Virus record (IMG/VR): IMGVR_UViG_3300044856_000216
Location: 32,001 to 96,000 of that record
DNA: 64,000 nucleotides
Source: a virus
Direction: 5' to 3' (one strand)
Both the position numbers and the translations under genes were made by a program. This document shows, one piece after another, positions 5,555 to 59,601 of the stretch (position 1 is the first letter of the stretch; each line of letters starts with the position of its first letter). The notes beneath the pieces are model-generated. The model did no database searches. It was not told the DNA's origin and worked only from the letters and a program-made list of their open reading frames with translations.

Positions 5555-5830
5555 TTATTCTCTGTTCTTAGAATCCCATTTAATAAAATCTTCTAAATCA
5601 TATTCACCAGATTCTTCTTCCTTAATCTCAGGAACAAATACGTTATAATTACCTTCATTATGGTCATGTTCAATAATTTGTTTCAACATTTCATACATAT
5701 TTGTAATTCCTAACTGATATGCTCTCTTCTCGCCTTCAGTCATTCCGTCACAAATTTCATCATTCTTGTTTTCTAATAGATCCTTATATTTTTCTAAGCT
5801 TTCTACGATTAATAAAAATTCTTCGTTCAT
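5555..5830 (-). CDS. hypothetical protein
   Basis: 91-aa acidic ORF in gene train. Confidence 0.5.
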   Translation of the reverse strand: MNEEFLLIVESLEKYKDLLENKNDEICDGMTEGEKRAYQLGITNMYEMLKQIIEHDHNEGNYNVFVPEIKEEESGEYDLEDFIKWDSKNRE

Positions 5831-5845
5831 TTATATATTCTCCCT

Positions 5846-6112
5846 TTACCATGTAAGTTTCTCTGTTACGAGAATAGGTGCAAACCCTGATTTTTCATAA
5901 TCGTGGTTACGTTCATATTCCTGAATTAATGCCATCGCAGTCTTTTTATTTACTGCTCTAACAGCCTGTTTAATATCATCTACAAATTCATCATCTACAC
6001 CTAAAAATACTGTATCTGTGTCAATATCTCCAATACCTGCTTTTGCTCTAAATGTACCTTTGTCTCTTGTTCCAAGTTTAATTAGTACATAAAATTCATT
6101 TTCAATCTTCAT
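5846..6112 (-). CDS. hypothetical protein
   Basis: 88 aa; start placed at ATG overlapping the upstream stop (track start 6151 would overlap by 50 nt). Confidence 0.45.
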   Translation of the reverse strand: MKIENEFYVLIKLGTRDKGTFRAKAGIGDIDTDTVFLGVDDEFVDDIKQAVRAVNKKTAMALIQEYERNHDYEKSGFAPILVTEKLTW

Positions 6113-23638: not shown

Positions 23639-24370
23639 TTATTCTCCAACTACAAACAACTTTTCTACTGCTTTTTCACCTGTTACTCTATCCGACTTTT
23701 GTAACACTTTACGTTCTTTCTTCCAGATACACTTAAAATCATCAGGCATATTATATTCACTTACCAACACTATATTGCTCTCTGAAAGTTTACGAAGAAA
23801 ATCGTAAAAAGAATCATAGTCAATTGACTGTTTAGAATACTGTTTTGTATTTTTGTAAGGTGGATCAAAATAAAATACGCAATTTTTATAATCTGAGAAA
23901 TTTTGATAATCGCAGCACGTTATTTCAATATCTTTTAATAATGGAGAATCTTCTTTCAAATTTTTGACTCTTTCCTGATAGATATTACGCTTACCAGTTT
24001 TATCCTTACCCCAACCGCCATCGAAGTATCTGCCACCATACGAACCACAATATCCAATTAATGCTGTATACTCCTTGGAGTATTTGCCAGTTCCTAATTT
24101 TCTATTCTCTCTTACTTCTGCATAATGTTCAAAATTACAATCTGGTGGTGCAATAGAAAGCGTTGAATCAGATTTTACATACTGTAACAATGCTATCAAT
24201 TCATCATTTACATCTGCTGCAATTCTGTTATCACATTGAATTTTTTCAATAATCGAACAACTACCACACATAGGTTCTATGTAAGTTTTAATATGATTAT
24301 CATCAATATACTTCTGAATAATCGGCACTAAAAATTTTGCCAACCTGTTTTTACTTCCTTGATATACCAT
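23639..24370 (-). CDS. dam: Dam-family DNA adenine methyltransferase
   Basis: 243 aa; YQGSKNRLAKFLVPII ... YIEPMCGSCS (SAM motif) ... FDPPY catalytic motif. Confidence 0.8.
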   Translation of the reverse strand: MVYQGSKNRLAKFLVPIIQKYIDDNHIKTYIEPMCGSCSIIEKIQCDNRIAADVNDELIALLQYVKSDSTLSIAPPDCNFEHYAEVRENRKLGTGKYSKEYTALIGYCGSYGGRYFDGGWGKDKTGKRNIYQERVKNLKEDSPLLKDIEITCCDYQNFSDYKNCVFYFDPPYKNTKQYSKQSIDYDSFYDFLRKLSESNIVLVSEYNMPDDFKCIWKKERKVLQKSDRVTGEKAVEKLFVVGE

Positions 24371-25903: not shown

Positions 25904-26089
25904 ATTTTTTAATTCCTTTCTTTATTAGCATGTTTATATTGTTTTTATATAATAAGTGATCACCTATATTTATATTATTCTCTGATTTATTTAGATTTCT
26001 CATCATATCCAGTCTCTTCAAGGAATTTATCAAATTCCTCTTTTGTCATATTGTTTGGATAATACATATCCATCACCATATCAAATGGC

Positions 26090-26335
26090 TGCAAATAATT
26101 ATCTAACACATTTCAAAAACTTCACCTCTTTTCATATTAAGAGTACATTCATTTCTGTACTCTATGAGAGCATCCTTATTCCTCATCATTACATGTTAGG
26201 ATCGAGGTTTGTTCCAAGGCATTATATTCTCAAATAAGTTTCAGCCTATACGCTCATCGGTTGACTGACTTGTTAGTTTCAGCCTTCACCTTTACCTTTT
26301 CACCATCTCAGGATTCATTGGTTTATTTAACCGTT
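26090..26335 (-). ncRNA. putative TnpB omega-RNA (reRNA) scaffold region; ends not determinable
   Basis: GC-richer, ORF-poor stretch starting at the tnpB 3' end; 11-nt direct repeat AGGCTGAAACT (26237-26247, 26275-26285); 7-bp hairpin GAGTACA-N8-TGTACTC (26141-26162); position matches where omega-RNAs are encoded. Confidence 0.35.
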
Positions 26336-27552
26336 TGTAGTGGTATATTTACGACTACTGGATGTGAACCTGCATCCACTATCCCATTGACGAAAGCCTT
26401 TGGGAATACCTTTTTCATTATCTGATAACTACCATTTACGTCTGCATTAATATATTTTCCCTTCTCACTCTGAAACAAACCTCTGTGAATTCTTCTGTCT
26501 TTATTGTAATTTTTCTCAATTGGTTCTTCACCATCAAGAAAAGATGTACCACTTGTATAACTTTCATTTGTTTTAATAAATTTAATTCCTTCATTCTCGC
26601 ATTTATATTCAAGCCTTTGTACAATACTTAAATATGGAATAGATACAAATTTCTGATTAACTCTTTTGCCCATATTGGTATCTTGTTTCCAGCCTGAATT
26701 ATAACCACAAACTAAAGTATCAATATTATTACACTTACAAAAATTTACCACCATCTTTGTTGATTTCTGAATATAGTCATCTACTTGATTATTTCTTTTA
26801 GTTGTAAATCTTTGCATCTCATTTGACCAATCACTATCATTTCTCAGCTTTAATGCAGATCTCATTTCTGAAATTTTCTTATTATAATACTGATTAATTG
26901 ACTTTAATGGTTTTCCATTTATTATAATTGGACTCACGTCACAGTTTGTTGTAATAGTCATTAAATTATCAACACCTAAGTCAATCGCAGCAATTCTCTC
27001 TGATACTATATTCTCTGTTTCAGGAACTTCTATTTTATATACTATCTCCATAACATAATAATCGGCTTTGGGAACAAATCTACATTGCATCAGTTTACCT
27101 TCAGCATGAGTATTCACTGTATAACCACCAAAAGGTTTAAATGCAATTCTGAATTGTCTATCATTTAATGAGCACTGTATATTCTTCAGCATAAAAACCT
27201 GTCTGCCGTCCTTCGGTAAATACTTAGGTAATTTTGGCATTCCTAAATACTTTGATGGATTTTTCTTCCAATCTTTTATTGCAACAAAATAGCCTTTCCA
27301 CATTTTATCTACAAGCTGTATTGTTTTCTGTGCTGCTTGCGAACCACATTCCTTATAGCAATCCATTGACTGCATAAGTTTTTGGACATCATAAGCACCT
27401 ATTTTATTTTTATTATTAATGAATTCTTGTCTAATAATATAATTTGCTTGATTATATACATTCTTTGAATAGAAACAATACTGGTCTACAATTTTATATA
27501 TAGGATTATTTCTTTTAATTATTTGCTGTTCAACACGATTAACTTTTTTCAT
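26323..27552 (-). CDS. tnpB: TnpB (IS200/IS605-family OrfB) RNA-guided RuvC nuclease
   Basis: 409 aa; RuvC-I IAAIDLGVDN, RuvC-II KTNESYTSGTS, RuvC-III INADVNGSYQI; the segment between II and III lacks the usual CxxC pairs; no tnpA in the window. Confidence 0.85.
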   Translation of the reverse strand: MKKVNRVEQQIIKRNNPIYKIVDQYCFYSKNVYNQANYIIRQEFINNKNKIGAYDVQKLMQSMDCYKECGSQAAQKTIQLVDKMWKGYFVAIKDWKKNPSKYLGMPKLPKYLPKDGRQVFMLKNIQCSLNDRQFRIAFKPFGGYTVNTHAEGKLMQCRFVPKADYYVMEIVYKIEVPETENIVSERIAAIDLGVDNLMTITTNCDVSPIIINGKPLKSINQYYNKKISEMRSALKLRNDSDWSNEMQRFTTKRNNQVDDYIQKSTKMVVNFCKCNNIDTLVCGYNSGWKQDTNMGKRVNQKFVSIPYLSIVQRLEYKCENEGIKFIKTNESYTSGTSFLDGEEPIEKNYNKDRRIHRGLFQSEKGKYINADVNGSYQIMKKVFPKAFVNGIVDAGSHPVVVNIPLQTVK

Positions 27553-27562
27553 TTAGTTTCCT

Positions 27563-27729
27563 TTATTTATTATTTTAAAAATTACATAGCTCTAAAACTA
27601 CTATTATTAATATGATTGTTGCTATAAGGGTTTATTACTAATTAAAATTACATAGCTCTAAAACCAAGTGATAATGCTGTAGCAACTCTGTTGGGTTTAT
27701 TACTAATTAAAATTACATAGCTCTAAAAC
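27563..27729 (-). CRISPR. mini-CRISPR array, 3 repeats / 2 spacers, type II-A-like repeat
   Basis: minus-strand repeat GTTTTAGAGCTATGTAATTTTAATTAGTAATAAACC at 27694-27729 and 27629-27664 (identical); third copy 27563-27598 matches the first 21 nt and then degenerates; spacers CAACAGAGTTGCTACAGCATTATCACTTG (27665-27693) and CTTATAGCAACAATCATATTAATAATAGTA (27599-27628). Confidence 0.8.
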
Positions 27730-27750
27730 CTCAAATATGTATTCGTAATT

Positions 27751-27779
27751 TATATAGTTTCTTGAAGTTTTACGTTCAA
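27751..27779 (-). promoter_or_regulatory. candidate sigma-70-type promoter in the array leader
   Basis: minus strand TTGAAC (27774-27779), 17-nt spacer, TATATA (27751-27756), about 20 nt upstream of the first repeat. Confidence 0.25.
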
Positions 27780-27880
27780 TGGACAAAACCCACGCCCACT
27801 ATCCAATTGATTTCTCTTTTGGAATACTTGCTACAGGATAAACATTTATCTATCCTGTATTTATATATTCTCTCTTTCAA

Positions 27881-28030
27881 TTACATCATCGTTGCAATTT
27901 CAGATATACTCATTATGAACCAACATAAAGCCATTACAGACCATGTAAATTTTTGCATCTTTTCTTTTACAGAAACAGCGTTTGCAATGCTCAAAATAAC
28001 TAATGCAATGTGCATTATCAGTAAAATCAC
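27881..28030 (-). CDS. small membrane protein
   Basis: 49 aa from GTG after AGGAGGTGAGACA (track start 28093); two hydrophobic segments. Confidence 0.4.
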   Translation of the reverse strand: MILLIMHIALVILSIANAVSVKEKMQKFTWSVMALCWFIMSISEIATMM

Positions 28031-28090
28031 TGTCTCACCTCCTAAATTTTTCAGAAGAAATTCCGCTTTCTTTCGGTCTTGATTTTTATA

Positions 28091-28132
28091 CAATATATAG
28101 TATTTGTTGTAATTATTTAATACTATATATTG
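28091..28132. promoter_or_regulatory. 14-nt inverted repeat pair CAATATATAGTATT / AATACTATATATTG
   Basis: perfect arms 28091-28104 and 28119-28132; same ACTATATAT core as the sites at 5073-5117 and 37543-37590. Confidence 0.4.
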
Positions 28133-28177: not shown

Positions 28178-28390
28178 TTATTTTCTAACCACATATAAAT
28201 AACTAAATCCACCAGCATTACCTACAGGCTGTGCTAATAAACACATTGCTACATGGTCTGAATCATATACCCTATTACCCTGGCGAAATTGCTTTCCAAA
28301 ATTTATCTCACCAATACCTCCAACTAACTGTGGCTTATCACCACAAGCAGAACTTAATCCACTTGTGGCTGATGAAAATTTGCCATCTTC
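28178..28390 (-). pseudogene. start-less open frame encoding a C5-methyltransferase TRD-like segment
   Basis: 70 sense codons with no ATG/GTG/TTG before codon 48; ...GGIGEINFGKQFRQGNRVYDSDHVAMCLLAQPVGNAGGFSYLYVV resembles target-recognition modules of SPbeta-type C5 MTases; overlaps the MTase 3' end by 37 nt in the -1 frame. Confidence 0.4.
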
Positions 28391-29859
28391 TCATCTGTAC
28401 AAATATATGTATTGTCATACTGAGCCTTATATAAATGCTCAATCAACAAAGAGATGCAAGTTGTCACTATACTGTTACCGCTTTGTTTATATCCCTGGGT
28501 ATCAGACATTCCAACTGCTTTACAGTTCTCATAATCAATATCATCGAATCCCATGAGCCTGTGGCACTCTTTTGGTGTGAGCTTTCTCACAACTCTTAAA
28601 TTGTCTCTATCTTCTTCGACCATTTGTTGCCGATTTCCTCCCTGGCATGTTGTTATTGTTGGAGAAATATAATCTTTGTCCCAAACATTTCCTGCGAATC
28701 CAGTTCCTTTATTTTCACCATAAATATTAAAAAGTCTTTTTATATTATTTGAATCTGCAAGAATCTGTTTTGGCTGTTTATAATCAGTTGCCACTAAAGT
28801 ACCCATTACTGAATCCTGCTGATAAACTAAATCTCTCTGACCGATAGTTCTGAATTCAGGTTTTGTAGTGCCAACAATATTTTTTTTAAATTTTGGATCT
28901 GTTATCTGAAGTCTTTTCTGTACTTCATCAGATAAGAAATATTTCGCCAAAACACTGCTATCTGTTTCTAATAAATCCTTTAATCTGATTCCTGTGTCAA
29001 AAGGCTGTGGAAATTCAAAAGACTTGGTATCAATATCCTTACGAATAGAGATACAGAAGATTCTATTACGATTCTGTGGAACACCTGTGTTCTTTGCATT
29101 GATTGTCTGATAATATGAGTTATATCCCAAGTTATCAAGCCGAATCAGCCAATCCTTAAAACTGTCAATATACTTCTTTGATACAAGAGCATCTACATTC
29201 TCCATAAGCAAATACTTTGGCAATGTGTTATTCTCTTTTGCTTTTACAAGAAGTCTCTCAACTTCATACAATAAACCTGAACGAGTTGATTTAATGTTGT
29301 GACTGCCACAATTAGGGCAAGTATAACGAGTATCTACATCTAATTCTGATGGATCATATTCACAACCACAATCATGACATGTCCACTTTAATCCTTCCTG
29401 TTTACCGGCGATTGACAAATCTGTGCATGGAGTCGAGTATGTAAGTAAATCACTATATGGCAGTGACTCAATCTGCATCATATCGCCAAGATTATGTGAA
29501 ATATGGTCTGCTAACCAATATTTCTCAATACCTTTTGTCTTGTTCTTCTTTCGTGAAAGTTTTTCCCAATCATACGGAACATCTTTTTTAAAATCATATC
29601 CAAGTCTCTTATCTGTAAGCTGTCTTACCATTTCTTCTTTGCTTGGATAATCTTCATAGTTTTCAATCATCTCATTAGTCAAACCACAATGCATTGCAGC
29701 ATAACTAACTACTACTTCTTTGTCTAAATCTGCTGTTGCAATCATATTTGCATTAAATAGATGAGTATTATCAATTCCCTTCATCTGCGCACCAATACCA
29801 CTACAAAGCTCAATTACACTTAACTCACAATAATTATTTTTTTCTTTATTCTCTGTCAA
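28354..29859 (-). CDS. DNA (cytosine-5)-methyltransferase, SPbeta/phi3T-like with zinc-ribbon insert
   Basis: 501 aa; motif I ELCSGIGAQ, IV TPCTDLS, VI LMENV, VIII QNRNRIF, IX RKLTPKECHRLMGF, X SGNSIV; CHDCGC...CPNCG inserted after motif IV; TTG start. Confidence 0.9.
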   Translation of the reverse strand: MTENKEKNNYCELSVIELCSGIGAQMKGIDNTHLFNANMIATADLDKEVVVSYAAMHCGLTNEMIENYEDYPSKEEMVRQLTDKRLGYDFKKDVPYDWEKLSRKKNKTKGIEKYWLADHISHNLGDMMQIESLPYSDLLTYSTPCTDLSIAGKQEGLKWTCHDCGCEYDPSELDVDTRYTCPNCGSHNIKSTRSGLLYEVERLLVKAKENNTLPKYLLMENVDALVSKKYIDSFKDWLIRLDNLGYNSYYQTINAKNTGVPQNRNRIFCISIRKDIDTKSFEFPQPFDTGIRLKDLLETDSSVLAKYFLSDEVQKRLQITDPKFKKNIVGTTKPEFRTIGQRDLVYQQDSVMGTLVATDYKQPKQILADSNNIKRLFNIYGENKGTGFAGNVWDKDYISPTITTCQGGNRQQMVEEDRDNLRVVRKLTPKECHRLMGFDDIDYENCKAVGMSDTQGYKQSGNSIVTTCISLLIEHLYKAQYDNTYICTDEKMANFHQPQVD

Positions 29860-31625: not shown

Positions 31626-32069
31626 TTACCTCCTGCATACTAAAATCTCAACATCCGTATCTGCAAAAACATTTTTAATTTGTTCTGAGACATCATTCCA
31701 GTTCAGCCTATCTAAACCACAACCAATTACAGGCATTGCAATCTTTTTAATATTATTCTCCAAACAAATCTGTTTCATCTTTTCAAGTGCAAGTCTCATT
31801 GTGATAATTGTTGGCTTGTGAAAATATCTCTCTTTTGTAATAAGATTTAATACTCTAGCTTCTAATAAACAGTCACCACCAATTCTTTTATGAGTGTACT
31901 GGTCAAAATAATATGGATATTTTGTCAGCAACCTTCTCTTCATATCAAACCTTTTATTGAACTCAACTACAATTCCTTTACCCATTCCAAAATCTGCACT
32001 GATACAATGTGCTAAATAATAATCTTCTGGTACTGTAAATAAGTCTTTATTTTCTTCTCTATACTTCAT
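31626..32069 (-). CDS. macrodomain protein, TARG1/OARD1-like (ADP-ribose hydrolase candidate)
   Basis: 147 aa; LAHCISADFGMGKGIVVEF and MPVIGCGLDRLNW match the TARG1-type macro signature as I recall it. Confidence 0.75.
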   Translation of the reverse strand: MKYREENKDLFTVPEDYYLAHCISADFGMGKGIVVEFNKRFDMKRRLLTKYPYYFDQYTHKRIGGDCLLEARVLNLITKERYFHKPTIITMRLALEKMKQICLENNIKKIAMPVIGCGLDRLNWNDVSEQIKNVFADTDVEILVCRR

Positions 32070-42875: not shown

Positions 42876-44297
42876 TTATGCGTTTGCCATCTTATCAAAA
42901 CTTCTCTTCATGAAGTCATAATTTACTTTCTGAGATGGACTAAACTTTTTTGTATTCTTATATTTATTAATCCATTCCTCAAACTTGTCCTCATTTTCAT
43001 TCTCACAAGCATATGCCATTAATGCGATTAAAGCTGTTTGGCATTGCTGATATATTGGAGCATTGACTTCAATTCCATTATGATCAAGGCAATAATCAAC
43101 AAGGTCAGAGTAAGTATCAATGTCCTCATCTGTCGCTTCTGGATTTGCGTTTTCCTGTACAAATGAGAGTGTTGATTCATTGGAGTTTTCGCCCTCTAAA
43201 ACTCTTGATTTTATTTGGTTTTTAAGGTCAAACATTTCCAACATAAGCGAAATATATGTATTTATCTTGTTTTGTATCAATTTTTTATCAGATGTACCAG
43301 GTTCTTTGTCAAGTATGTCATAGCTCCATCCATCAACCACTTTGTCATGTAAATTATTTACCAATTCATCTAAAAACTCGACAAATTTGCTATCTTCTAA
43401 TCCCAACTTAATGAATCTATGGAACACGGCAAACCAAACTGGGATATCTTTGAATACAAACAAGTTTTGGAATTTCTCTCCACAAACCTTTGCAATTCGA
43501 TTTCCGTATATATTAATTGTGTTAAATTCTTCATCAGAAGAGCTATTTTCGATAAATTCATTTCTGTCTTTCGGATTCTTTTTCCAATCATCCATATGAA
43601 ATACAGTCATTACAGAATTTGCAACTGTCTGCTCGTAAGTTCCATTCTTCCTCTTTGCACTTGAATATGTAACACAATTTTTGTAAAACTCATTGTTTGC
43701 AATGTTTTTAATTTTTCTTGCATATGTAGGAATCCATGTAAGAGCTTTCTGGTTTGAACCCATGCTCTTATTGCGGTTATACCTTCTTACTAACTTACTG
43801 ATTTCCATCATATTGCAGTTCTGATGAATAACAATTCTGATCTGATAATCATCAAATTTCTTTTTTAATTCATCAGGTAACTGCTCGTAAGTTTTATTCT
43901 TTATGTCAAACTCACAATTGTCCCAAAGAATGCTTCCGTTCTCATCTTTAATAAGATGTCCCTTTTCATCTCTTCGCTTCTTCTGATACTGAATAACGCT
44001 ATTCTCAAAAGATTTAGTTGTTTTCCAGTTCATATGCCTGAATTTATTCAGAGCTGTTGTTCTCTGAATACCATCAACTATATACTGCTGAGTTAAATTA
44101 TCTCCAAGCTCTTCCTCTCCAAGAATTATAGGAGGAATATAATCTTCATTAAGCACCGTATAGATTAGCTCATTTATTGCTCCATTATCCCAACAGAACA
44201 TTCTCTGAACGTCCTGATTTTCTGAAATATCTTCACTATTTACACTCTTTAAATATGAAGATAATGCTATTGCTTGTTCTCTTACCTTTTTTGCCAT
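42876..44297 (-). CDS. DUF262 (GmrSD N-terminal/ParB-like) domain protein
   Basis: 473 aa; IVDGIQRTTAL corresponds to the DGQQR box of DUF262; no obvious HNH/DUF1524 C-terminal motif seen. Confidence 0.6.
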   Translation of the reverse strand: MAKKVREQAIALSSYLKSVNSEDISENQDVQRMFCWDNGAINELIYTVLNEDYIPPIILGEEELGDNLTQQYIVDGIQRTTALNKFRHMNWKTTKSFENSVIQYQKKRRDEKGHLIKDENGSILWDNCEFDIKNKTYEQLPDELKKKFDDYQIRIVIHQNCNMMEISKLVRRYNRNKSMGSNQKALTWIPTYARKIKNIANNEFYKNCVTYSSAKRKNGTYEQTVANSVMTVFHMDDWKKNPKDRNEFIENSSSDEEFNTINIYGNRIAKVCGEKFQNLFVFKDIPVWFAVFHRFIKLGLEDSKFVEFLDELVNNLHDKVVDGWSYDILDKEPGTSDKKLIQNKINTYISLMLEMFDLKNQIKSRVLEGENSNESTLSFVQENANPEATDEDIDTYSDLVDYCLDHNGIEVNAPIYQQCQTALIALMAYACENENEDKFEEWINKYKNTKKFSPSQKVNYDFMKRSFDKMANA

Positions 44298-55839: not shown

Positions 55840-55872
55840 ATAATCACCTCCATTATATTATTCTCCAATCGA

Positions 55873-57725
55873 GTAGGAGGGAAATTTAACGAAATTTCCC
55901 GACCTCTCACACCACCGTGCGTACCGTTCGGTACACGGCGGTTCAATCAACTTAACAAGTAACGCACCTTTCGGTGTAGTAATCTAACATTGAGACTAAT
56001 CCAAATGAGGTTAGTCTCTTTGTACTTATAGCCTTTTGTATCCATCCATTGTGGGCGAGTCTTGCATATCTGTCTCCGCAATACGCTATTTTAAATGCTG
56101 CCCATCTTGGTACATCAAGTTTCATAAGGTTCTTTGCTCTGTTTTGTGGAGTTTTCCAATGTTTCCAAATGCACATACGAAGTCTGTATCTGATGCTACC
56201 ATCTAGTTCTCGACAAAGTGTTTTCATACTTCCAATTTTAAAGTAATTTATCCAACCTCTGATGAGTTGATTTAATTTCTCCACCTTGTAGCTGTTGCTA
56301 ACGCCCCAGCTACGGCATGTGAGTTCTTTCATTCTTTTCTTAAACTTCGCTACTGATTTTGCATGTGGTTTTGCCTTAAACTGATGTGCTCTTGTGTCAA
56401 AGTAGAACCCAAACCCAAGGTATTTAAGTCCGCTTGGTCTGTCTACTTTACTCTTTGTCATGTTGACCTTGAGACCTAGTTTCTCCTCAATAAATCGAGA
56501 TATGTTTCTCATTACCCGATTTGCAGACATTTCACTTCCAACCATGATAATACAGTCATCTGCATATCGCACAAAGTTAAGCCCTCGCTTTTCCATTTCC
56601 TTATCAAGTTCATTGAGCATGATGTTTGCCAATAACGGCGAAAGATTTCCTCCTTGCGGTGTTCCCACAATAGAATCCTCATATTCATCGTCTATCATGA
56701 TTCCGCTGACAAGGTATTTCCTTATGATAGAGATAACATCTCCATCTTTTATAGTTCTGCCTATGATAGTCATAAGCTTGTCATGGTTTACCGTGTCAAA
56801 GAACTTTTCCAAGTCAATGTCTACAATCCAATCGTTACCATCATTCATCATGTCAAGTGCTGTTAGGATTGCTTGCTGTGCACATCTATTCGGTCTGAAT
56901 CCATAACTATGTTCATGGAATTGTTCCTCGTAGATTGGTGTTAATACCTGTGCAATGGCTTGCTGTATGAATCTGTCTGTTACTGTTGGTACTCCTAGGT
57001 TTCTGACACCGCCATCGGGCTTTGGTATCTCCACTCTTCGTACTGGTTGAGGTTTATACTTTCTTGTCCCCAACTGTTCCTTGATGATTTCGCCGTTCTT
57101 TTCAAGATGTTCTTTGAGTTCCGTGTACTTCATTCCGTCCACTCCCTCTGCACCTTTATTTCGTACGACTTGCAGATATGCTCTGTTGAGATTATCGCTA
57201 GATAAAATCTGCTCCATTAGACTACTTGTGTCCATGCGTTCTTTCCTTTCCGTCTCGCTTGATTTGACCATCTTTTACCCGATTGGTTACGGCAGATGTT
57301 GCCATTTCTGCAATACGAGACATACTCAAACTTATTGATTGTTCGCCCCTTCGCTCCATTTCCATTACAGAAACTTCTTCACTACTATGGGCTCGGCTGA
57401 CTTCTCACAGTTCGTTGTTACTAGGCTAATAGAACCTCTGTGAGACCTCCACGCTTAAGGTGCACGCTCTTTCTCTCCATACATCCGCCACATTTACTCT
57501 GCTACTACAAAAAGTGATAATTATTAGACTTCGTTGCTTTTAGCCAACTTATCTCTCATAGCCTAGCCTTATATGTGATTTCTATCCGTCGGACCAGAGA
57601 TTTGCTTACAGCTTCCTTCAGATTCCATCTCACGATGAACACCCTTGCTGTTCAGCTATACACTTCCCACTATCTGGGCGTGTTCGGGACTTTCACCCGT
57701 TAGAGCGCGCCCATGGCGCGCAAAC
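55873..57725 (-). mobile_element. group II intron, class IIC-like (ends +/- a few nt)
   Basis: 5' end GTTTGCGCGCCATGGGCGCGCTCTAACGGGTGAAAGTCCCGAAC closely parallels the Oceanobacillus iheyensis IIC intron as I recall it; domain V ACCGCCGTGTACC-GAAC-GGTACGCACGGTGGT at 55905-55940; domain VI GGGAAATTT-CGTT-AAATTTCCC; RT/maturase ORF inside. Confidence 0.85.
55952..57235 (-). CDS. ltrA: group II intron reverse transcriptase/maturase (no endonuclease domain)
   Basis: 427 aa from ATG after AAAGGAAAGAACGC; RT blocks PKPDGGVRNLGVPTVTDRFIQ, YGFRPNRCAQQA, DIDLEKFFD, GTPQGGNLSPLLAN, RYADD; X/maturase C-terminus; no HNH. Confidence 0.9.
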   Translation of the reverse strand: MDTSSLMEQILSSDNLNRAYLQVVRNKGAEGVDGMKYTELKEHLEKNGEIIKEQLGTRKYKPQPVRRVEIPKPDGGVRNLGVPTVTDRFIQQAIAQVLTPIYEEQFHEHSYGFRPNRCAQQAILTALDMMNDGNDWIVDIDLEKFFDTVNHDKLMTIIGRTIKDGDVISIIRKYLVSGIMIDDEYEDSIVGTPQGGNLSPLLANIMLNELDKEMEKRGLNFVRYADDCIIMVGSEMSANRVMRNISRFIEEKLGLKVNMTKSKVDRPSGLKYLGFGFYFDTRAHQFKAKPHAKSVAKFKKRMKELTCRSWGVSNSYKVEKLNQLIRGWINYFKIGSMKTLCRELDGSIRYRLRMCIWKHWKTPQNRAKNLMKLDVPRWAAFKIAYCGDRYARLAHNGWIQKAISTKRLTSFGLVSMLDYYTERCVTC

Positions 57726-59388: not shown

Positions 59389-59601
59389 CTATCCCATACA
59401 TCCTAATTCAAGAACATCAGGATTATCAGCAAACCAATGATTATCAATATTTTCAATTTCAATCATATCTTTGGTTATCACTGACTCGTATCCTCCATGC
59501 TCTGTATATGCTTTTAATACTTTCTGTTTGGCTTCCTCTTCTGTATCAGCTTTTACAATTCCATAAGTGTCATCGTCAAATGTGTATATCCAAAACTTCA
59601 T
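59389..59601 (-). CDS. hypothetical protein
   Basis: 70-aa ORF in gene train. Confidence 0.45.
   Translation of the reverse strand: MKFWIYTFDDDTYGIVKADTEEEAKQKVLKAYTEHGGYESVITKDMIEIENIDNHWFADNPDVLELGCMG

Follow-up and report, generated by a model that had tools for sequence, protein, structure and literature searches.

The 64,000-nt stretch of the viral record IMGVR_UViG_3300044856_000216 analyzed here (positions 32,001 to 96,000 of the record; hereafter termed the window) carries a tnpB gene that is preceded directly, on the same strand, by a short CRISPR array. We consider that the gene and the array probably constitute a phage-encoded CRISPR-TnpB module of the TranC or type V-U kind, which lacks cas1 and cas2 and would be directed against competing phages. 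The module has the look of a minimal CRISPR weapon borne by a virus, at an intermediate stage on the way from a transposon gene to a Cas12 system. The preliminary description of this DNA had raised two options, namely a hypercompact CRISPR-TnpB effector module and a tnpB element that landed, or was domesticated, beside a mini-array hijacking Cas9. The former is now the better supported of the two, on account of the conserved linkage between the array and tnpB, a motif on the 5' side of the protospacers and a leader homologous to the omega-RNA, albeit the type II likeness of the repeats is left unexplained by this option.

The array-tnpB unit and its conservation

All of the genes in the window lie on the minus strand. 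The module reads, on that strand, hairpin (27857->27833), leader, repeat 1, spacer 1, repeat 2, spacer 2, terminal repeat, ribosome-binding site and tnpB, and the whole unit of leader, array, tnpB and omega-RNA is as compact as 1.6 kb. Its features are as follows.

27833..27857, minus strand: hairpin ACAGGATAGATAAATGTTTATCCTGT, between the open reading frame (ORF) of a small membrane protein (27881-28093) and the module; upstream edge of the conserved module
27730..27831, minus strand: array leader, 102 nt, a diverged copy of the tnpB 3' end and the omega-RNA scaffold; ATTTGAG at 27736->27730
27694..27729, minus strand: repeat 1, GTTTTAGAGCTATGTAATTTTAATTAGTAATAAACC; the next base, C at 27693, acts as a 37th position
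27665..27693, minus strand: spacer 1, CAACAGAGTTGCTACAGCATTATCACTTG; perfect match to the integrase gene of another phage contig, IMGVR_UViG_3300029249_000260
27629..27664, minus strand: repeat 2, same sequence as repeat 1
27599..27628, minus strand: spacer 2, CTTATAGCAACAATCATATTAATAATAGTA; perfect match to IMGVR_UViG_3300029249_000260, in the ORF of a small membrane protein
27563..27598, minus strand: terminal repeat; first 21 nt (27598->27578) intact, 3' part replaced by the ribosome-binding region of tnpB
27563->27556, minus strand: AAGGAAAC, upstream of the tnpB ATG at 27552
26323..27552, minus strand: tnpB, 409 aa; D191, E330 and D371 conserved, G283 in the RuvC-II region, no CxxC zinc finger
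26312..26413, minus strand: natural omega-RNA scaffold, overlapping the tnpB 3' end; stem0, hairpins 1-3 and the 3' hexamer TGAATC

The array is composed of three repeats and two spacers (27729->27563) and ends 10 nt 5' of the ATG of tnpB. Re-reading of the sequence left the coordinates given in the preliminary description for the end of the last repeat (27563), the Shine-Dalgarno sequence and the ATG (27552) unchanged. A site scan found no terminator-like site between the array and tnpB, bearing out the earlier statement that the two lie on the same strand with nothing of this kind in between. In the relatives, another hairpin occupies the place equivalent to that of ACAGGATAGATAAATGTTTATCCTGT, directly 5' of CAAGTATTCC, and the edges of the module are sharp and conserved across differing phage contexts. 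Each spacer follows a repeat whose 3' end is intact and precedes one whose 5' half is intact; the truncation of the terminal repeat is the same in all clades, the 5' half of the repeat being kept there. Within single arrays, repeat positions 26-36 are invariant and positions 5-17 are variable, and the spacers are 28-32 nt (about 30 nt) in length. The search against Rfam yielded only sub-threshold matches to CRISPR-DR22.

The 409-aa ORF is a TnpB with a predicted TnpB/Cas12f fold bearing the RuvC triad. Its product scored 188.1 bits against the NCBIfam profile NF040570 guided_TnpB (cutoff 100; E=2.9e-55), and the Pfam domains detected were OrfB_IS605 and a Cas12f1-like TNB domain. The AlphaFold2 model of the protein (predicted local distance difference test score of 79) found AsCas12f (E=2.6e-15) and ISDra2 TnpB (8h1j; E=9e-15) as the best matches in Foldseek. 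The phmmer search of the protein against PDB gave no match, matches appearing only once a profile was used. D191, E330 and D371 show no variation among homologues (sets of 20 and of 31), and an invariant GxNxxWKQ motif between RuvC-I and RuvC-III carries G283. We infer that G283 may represent a glycine-for-glutamate rearrangement with the glutamate relocated to E330; TnpB branches with a "rearranged RuvC-II" have been described (PMC10691335). The window contains a single copy of tnpB. No transposase was found among the window ORFs examined, with no search aimed at tnpA, and no ends of an insertion sequence (IS) were identified.

We counted the linkage in the subset of 110 TnpB loci (loci and contigs are cited below by L numbers) that showed at least 68% TnpB identity and retained at least 300 nt upstream. 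An array was located directly 5' of the tnpB ATG in all 44 loci of this subset (44/44), constantly in the order of structured leader, array and tnpB. Furthermore, an array precedes tnpB in the 63% clade (L019/L038) and in L197, a prophage of Lachnospiraceae bacterium A4 of which TnpB is 56% identical to that in the window. The arrays of L166/L167, in a 68% clade, possess a different repeat and a shorter leader. No array of this leader-end type without tnpB was detected by the leader-pattern scan of IMG/VR. The leader-core pattern GATAGNGGGYGYGGGTTTY retrieved at least ~10 further array loci, including L197, among the matches listed; in the genome and metagenome collections, the same pattern was too loose, matching mostly unrelated GC-rich DNA. 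Since all close relatives share the arrangement, it goes far beyond what chance would give. The survey of related genomes proposed in the preliminary description thus found TnpB and the array to be linked, both in the 44 loci and in the 63% and 56% clades.

The same linkage, maintained over TnpB identities of 56-100%, refutes the chance insertion that had been offered earlier. More broadly, the insertion of a tnpB element into or next to an old array, with no interaction between the two, seems extremely improbable to us. The terminal repeat is cut at position 21, the exact start of the tnpB upstream region, which could be an insertion scar, and TnpB relatives with no array occur in similar phages (L014-L018 and L020). 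On the other hand, the arrangement is kept down to 56% TnpB identity, the changing spacers perfectly match current phages, and the leader has undergone compensatory evolution (see below). The TnpBs with no array (L014-L018, L020, L025 and L030) were placed between array-bearing groups in a rough neighbor-joining tree, which suggests the loss of the array in some lineages. Two of them, L014 and L018, are sister TnpBs with 66% identity and carry a small divergent gene and an inverted-repeat, operator-like promoter upstream (5700-6000). L014 additionally has the decayed 3' end of a further tnpB upstream, in the opposite orientation.

The arrays are alive, as the spacers differ even between near-identical phages. 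Altogether, 40 distinct spacers were seen, with one to four spacers per array. Among the phages with identical TnpB, the array comprises either spacer 2 alone or spacers 1 and 2, indicating the gain of a spacer next to the leader; L026, L004 and L002 likewise differ by the leader-proximal spacer. An internally deleted array unit was observed in L163/L164 (2700-3000), where 19 nt are left of a spacer and run directly into the final 15 nt of a repeat. The spacer following this 15-nt repeat end retains a match in a phage, next to which the 5' motif is correct.

The leader and the natural omega-RNA

Judging from its sequence and covariation, the leader is a diverged homologue of the omega-RNA scaffold. 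The start of the leader is a recognizable copy of the last ~40 nt of a tnpB ORF, and the elements that follow are stem0 (TCCAA..TTGGA), hairpin 1 (GGGCG-TGGGTTT-TGTCC) and hairpin 2 (TTGAA..TTCAA). We searched the 64-kb window with a covariance model built solely on natural omega-RNAs of this TnpB family (20 sequences, 5' module). The model recovered the natural omega-RNA at 26350-26413 with 72.6 bits (E=6e-15) and the leader at 27771-27831 with 32.9 bits (E=2e-5), the next match in the window scoring 12.5 bits. This third match (59463-59524, minus strand; E=1.8) is weak and probably due to chance. In the alignment of 13 leader variants, 93% of the cells pair, as opposed to 29-54% in slid controls, and four pairs are compensatory. 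The compensatory changes reside in stem0 (TCCAA/TTGGA versus TCAAA/TTTGA) and hairpin 1 (GGGCG/CGTCC versus GGGTG/CACCC). The alignment of the natural omega-RNA family is 100% paired, with 7 of the 10 pairs compensatory.

The natural omega-RNA scaffold is short, terminating with TGAATC (26317->26312) 11 nt past the stop codon of tnpB, at the point where the relatives diverge. Its hairpin-1 loop is CAGGTTCA, with which TGAATC pairs, and its hairpin 3 is GGTT..AACC. The hairpin-1 loop of natural omega-RNAs pairs with the 6 nt that adjoin the guide on the 5' side, and the loop and the 3' hexamer covary in the relatives (GGTTCA:TGAATC, GGTTTA:TAAATC and CATTTA:TAAATG). A corresponding complementarity was found upstream of tnpB: the loop GGGTTT of the leader complements the repeat 3' end, AAACCC or AAACCT, directly 5' of the spacers, in all clades and with 97% of the cells paired. 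As the complementarity between the loop and the repeat end mirrors the natural pseudoknot, the leader, repeat 1 and spacer 1 appear to be laid out as an omega-RNA, with spacer 1 in the position of the guide. Thus, the leader, overlooked in the preliminary description, is likely the partner that resembles a tracrRNA (trans-activating CRISPR RNA), rather than the region 3' of tnpB.

That tnpB has an omega-RNA of its own at the 3' end had been noted in the preliminary description and holds, albeit not at the place assigned to it (26.0-26.3 kb): the conserved scaffold is located at 26413->26312. The relatives at 96-98% (L001-L004, L012 and L026) lack the 26.0-26.3 kb segment, which is lineage-specific, occurring in all of the contigs that encode the identical TnpB and only in these. 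A stretch of ~325 nt (25987-26311, minus strand) separates the end of the omega-RNA from the next shared gene. It includes a 40-aa ORF (25987-26109, minus strand), which is also found elsewhere in L007, and its first ~20 nt would be the fixed guide of the omega-RNA. The candidate for this guide is at ~26311->26292. In L005-L013, L021, L022 and L163, with varied downstream contexts, the 12-16 nt past the end of the omega-RNA are semi-conserved (TTCGATTTCTTG / TCAGGTTTC.TT / TTTGGTTTCTTGG), which suggests a conserved fixed guide or a conserved target site.

TTTGAG is common to the leader end and to the window at ~26232, where a second right end was considered; we now judge the match to be due to chance. 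The transposon-associated motif was not derivable independently from the guides of natural omega-RNAs or from empty sites, and the "empty site" in L009 resembles a decayed right end.

Targets and type II-A-like features

We found seven independent protospacers, of which six match perfectly, and all of them are in the contigs of other phages. Both spacers of the window and the spacer of L002 match one 28.6-kb contig possessing the genes for integrase, repressor and HNH endonuclease. The spacers of two different TnpB clades match a single contig family (with portal, terminase and capsid proteins), and the third target, matched by the first spacer of L008, is a pair of viral contigs (L168 and L169). 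No protospacer was found for the second spacer of L008 in IMG/VR or for the first spacer of L006 in the genomes. Neither the megablast search of the locus nor the blastn search with 21 concatenated spacers against GenBank phages gave anything useful, and the second spacer set had no match in plasmids.

In the sense of the CRISPR RNA (crRNA), A occupies the position immediately 5' of the protospacer (-1) in 7/7 cases (P about 4e-4) and position -2 in 6/7, and a purine occupies position -3 in 7/7. The spacer begins with a clade-specific base in 7/7 cases, namely C in the clade of the window and T in the other clades, and this base equals the near-constant 37th base of the array. The 3' flanks (AAG, AGG, GGA, TGT, TGG, CAG and CAA) show no fixed position. 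In the imperfect matches, the mismatches are at spacer positions 22-29, distal to the 5' motif. The target of the spacer CAAGTAGAGC... was available in 13 copies (L105-L121), of which the 45-nt 5' flank is changed only at -1 or -2: L117 has A>G at -1 and L120 has A>C at -2. These variants of the protospacer-adjacent motif (PAM) may represent escape variants. The presence of a 5' R-R-A + C/T motif on the side of the repeat 3' end, together with no clear PAM on the 3' side, agrees with the geometry of a TnpB/type V effector and not with that of Cas9. The seven protospacers are purine-rich at +2 to +5 of the 3' flank, which may reflect either the bias of a coding strand or a weak PAM of the Cas9 type.

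A mechanism can be proposed for the CRISPR-TnpB module. The whole unit would be transcribed as one RNA starting upstream of the leader, and TnpB would bind the scaffold encoded by the leader in the same way as its own omega-RNA. The repeat 3' end (AAACCY) may then pair with the hairpin-1 loop (GGGTTT) to rebuild the pseudoknot that is found directly 5' of the natural guide, and the rebuilt pseudoknot would put the spacer that follows in the role of the guide. A contiguous omega-RNA-like molecule would be made up of the leader, repeat 1 and spacer 1, and the later repeat-spacer units may use the scaffold in trans, in the manner of a tracrRNA. Finally, the RuvC site (D191, relocated E330 and D371) would cut the DNA bearing the 5' motif. 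Since the normal omega-RNA with the fixed guide is retained, TnpB probably uses both types of RNA.

The 5' half of the repeat and the end of the leader tell a separate story. Repeat positions 1-21 match the repeats of Listeria type II-A systems at 20/21 positions, over its full length the repeat agrees with them at 29/36 (hand count), and the leader ends with ATTTGAG followed by GTTT. ATTTGAG/GTTT is the leader-repeat junction of Group 1 type II-A systems and is required for spacer integration (Van Orden et al. 2017, PMC5382924). Degenerate forms of the junction occur in some clades (ATTTTAG and ATTTGAT). The type II-like appearance of the repeat, which had been pointed out in the preliminary description, was therefore correct, being seen in both the match to Listeria and the leader end. 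To judge by these matches, the II-A likeness of the repeat 5' half and the leader end cannot be a coincidence, and in the simplest reading the array would descend from, or stay compatible with, a type II-A array. The likeness further suggests that the spacers may be acquired through the II-A Cas1-Cas2 integrase of the host. Among the 57 window ORFs of at least 120 aa, a cut-off above the size of a Cas2 ORF, no Cas1, Cas2, Csn2 or Cas9 was detected. The match to "Cas1_IIIb" reported by PADLOC is the reverse transcriptase of a group II intron and no Cas1.

These features could belong to a mini-array that supplies crRNAs to Cas9 and the tracrRNA of the host and receives spacers from the host Cas1-Cas2-Csn2, in which case TnpB would be a passenger or a co-regulated gene served by its own omega-RNA only. 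The junction is the Group 1 II-A motif, the first 21 nt of the repeat are Listeria-like, the spacers are about 30 nt, the terminal repeat retains exactly the part that would pair with a tracrRNA, and the 3' flanks are weakly biased to NRG. As the phages are temperate (L080, L197 and the 1.6-Mb contig), the host machinery would be at hand. Nevertheless, we hold this explanation to be quite unlikely. The motif is strong on the 5' side and no 3' PAM is consistent, and the leader is a conserved, covarying homologue of the omega-RNA, which is useless to Cas9. No such array was found apart from tnpB, and no cas9 (among the ORFs of at least 120 aa) and no anti-repeat were found in the window. Moreover, the 5' half of the repeat varies inside single arrays (L197, L325 and L006), the matched spacer of L163 is preceded by just the last 15 nt of the repeat, and the spacer length is variable (28-32 nt).

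Alternatively, the array may be a hybrid, the 5' half of the repeat and the leader end serving the II-A integrase of the host (and possibly Cas9) and the 3' end of the repeat and the scaffold serving TnpB. A hybrid accounts for the II-A-like and the TnpB-like features together, including the 5' motif and the faint 3' NRG bias, both of which are seen. It is consistent with the intact repeat parts that border the spacers (3' end upstream and 5' half downstream) and with the finding of no adaptation genes among the window ORFs of at least 120 aa. Its difficulties are that II-A adaptation normally needs a 3' PAM chosen by Cas9, which is not clear here, and that the leader end is degenerate in some clades as described above. 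We regard a division of labor of this kind as unlikely. We also entertain, as a tentative and somewhat doubtful idea, that a type II-A array was captured and adopted by TnpB. The repeats would then be natural chimeras, of which the 5' half, together with ATTTGAG, is readable by the host integrase and the 3' end completes the pseudoknot of the duplicated scaffold.

Several observations weigh against the interpretation of the unit as a CRISPR-TnpB module. The duplex between the leader and the repeat (-11.0 kcal/mol) is no better than the duplexes with shuffled repeats (mean of -12.6 kcal/mol), and an anti-repeat is thus unproven. A longer anti-repeat, spotted by eye in each clade and without the support of duplex energy over shuffled repeats, can be offered as a hypothesis only, and no anti-repeat for the 5' half of the repeat was found in the window. 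The proposed pseudoknot between the loop and the repeat relies on 6 nt with hardly any variation. The sample of protospacers is small, with seven only, and their 3' flanks have a weak purine/NRG bias (+2 purine in 7/7, +3 G in 4/7 and NRG in 4/7). The promoter scan was uninformative in this AT-rich DNA (19 sites versus 15 expected). The II-A-like 21 nt, the ATTTGAG end and the 5' half kept by the terminal repeat correspond to the requirements of a Cas9 crRNA and a II-A integrase. Last, the array sits downstream of the gene in almost all conserved associations between Cas12 and arrays (PMC10691335), whereas the array here, unlike those of type V-U, Cas12f and Cas12n, is located upstream.

Phage setting and relation to known systems

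The module carriers are large temperate phages of gut Clostridia. The relatives were identified in IMG/VR contigs of 90-186 kb, and closely related modules were found in a contig of Eubacterium segne BX4, a scaffold of Lachnospiraceae bacterium A4 and a 1.62-Mb metagenomic contig (ERZ28761166:contig_1328). The window is phage DNA, with an integrase, a tRNA nucleotidyltransferase, many PHROG families and tRNA-Gln. Genes for DNA methyltransferases (cytosine and adenine) flank the region of the module on the minus strand (28354-29859 and 23639-24370), one of them directly upstream of the module, and methyltransferases adjoin the module in L162, L166 and L410-L415 as well. A group II intron (55868-57639, minus strand) was recognized with the Rfam models for D1-D4 and D5/6 and contains an ORF with RVT_1 and GIIM (55952-57271). 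A 473-aa ORF (42876-44297, minus strand) showed a sub-threshold match to the GmrSD N-terminal domain (32.3 bits against a cutoff of 33.2) and is possibly a further nuclease or defence gene.

TranC systems are described as transposon-CRISPR intermediates, with an omega-RNA that has been divided into a tracrRNA and a crRNA (Jin et al., Cell 2025, cited in PMC13565253). A preprint of 2026 on CauTranC9, a member of TranC clade 9 from a Caudoviricetes genome, describes an active effector of ~414 aa with 38-bp repeats and phage-targeting spacers, and states that clade 9 yielded no consistent tracrRNA structure (bioRxiv 10.64898/2026.03.27.714800). The phage module shares with these systems an effector of the size of TnpB (409-433 aa here and ~414 aa there) with no expansion of REC or WED, a short array of 36-38-nt repeats with no cas1/cas2, the location on a phage, the phage-targeting spacers and the 5' PAM. 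The idea of an omega-RNA split into a tracr-like and a crRNA part is common to TranC and the module, and the effector may use both types of RNA. In contrast to TranC/CauTranC9, the array and the copy of the scaffold are upstream of the gene here, with a complete omega-RNA kept downstream, and both the 5' half of the repeat and the end of the leader resemble type II-A. The phage module and TranC clade 9, compared by description only, may belong to the same family.

The candidate subtypes of type V-U/V-U*, Cas12f and Cas12n derived from TnpB with independent origins (Altae-Tran et al. 2023, PMC10691335). Like these, the phage module possesses a RuvC effector from TnpB that is linked only to arrays and a 5' PAM, and the best structural matches of the predicted model are Cas12f and ISDra2 TnpB. 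Unlike type V-U, Cas12f and Cas12n, the phage TnpB appears to belong to a branch with the RuvC-II glycine, the relocated glutamate and no zinc finger. As in ordinary TnpBs of IS200/IS605, the guided_TnpB profile was passed and the omega-RNA extends over the 3' end of the gene with the pseudoknot just 5' of the guide. The phage TnpB differs from them in being fixed beside an array in all close relatives, in the second copy of the scaffold serving as the array leader, and in that no tnpA or IS ends were identified, though no dedicated search for tnpA was made.

Virus-borne mini-arrays that borrow the Cas proteins of the host exist, and the array here is similar to them in bearing few spacers against competing viruses with no adaptation genes on the virus. 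It is also similar to Group 1 type II-A arrays in the ATTTGAG/GTTT junction, the 36-nt repeat starting with GTTTTAGAGCTATG and the spacers of about 30 nt. In contrast to type II-A arrays, the motif flanks the protospacers on the 5' side, the 3' end of the repeat resembles that of an omega-RNA (...AAACCY and not ...AAAAC), and TnpB and the leader derived from an omega-RNA are the constant company of the array. Compared with the systems described, the upstream array led by a duplicated omega-RNA scaffold, with the natural omega-RNA retained downstream, appears to be new. The proposed pseudoknot with the repeat 3' end and the combination of a II-A-like repeat 5' half and leader end appear to be so as well.

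The origin of Cas12 from TnpB, and the source of its arrays and tracrRNAs, have been addressed only recently, via TranC. A single unit here keeps an unexpanded TnpB, an intact omega-RNA, a diverged copy of the scaffold as the leader and an active mini-array. If the array was indeed captured from a type II-A system, the unit would be a living example of a Cas12-like system originating by the sharing of machinery across types, not by the duplication of a segment of the omega-RNA. Because the module is found in several diverged clades and in at least two lysogens that can be cultivated (Eubacterium segne BX4 and Lachnospiraceae bacterium A4), both the split-RNA model and the array-capture model are testable. 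Large temperate gut phages would wield an RNA-guided nuclease of ~410 aa against smaller rival phages, and the effector, with its short and A-rich 5' PAM, may make for a very compact nuclease.

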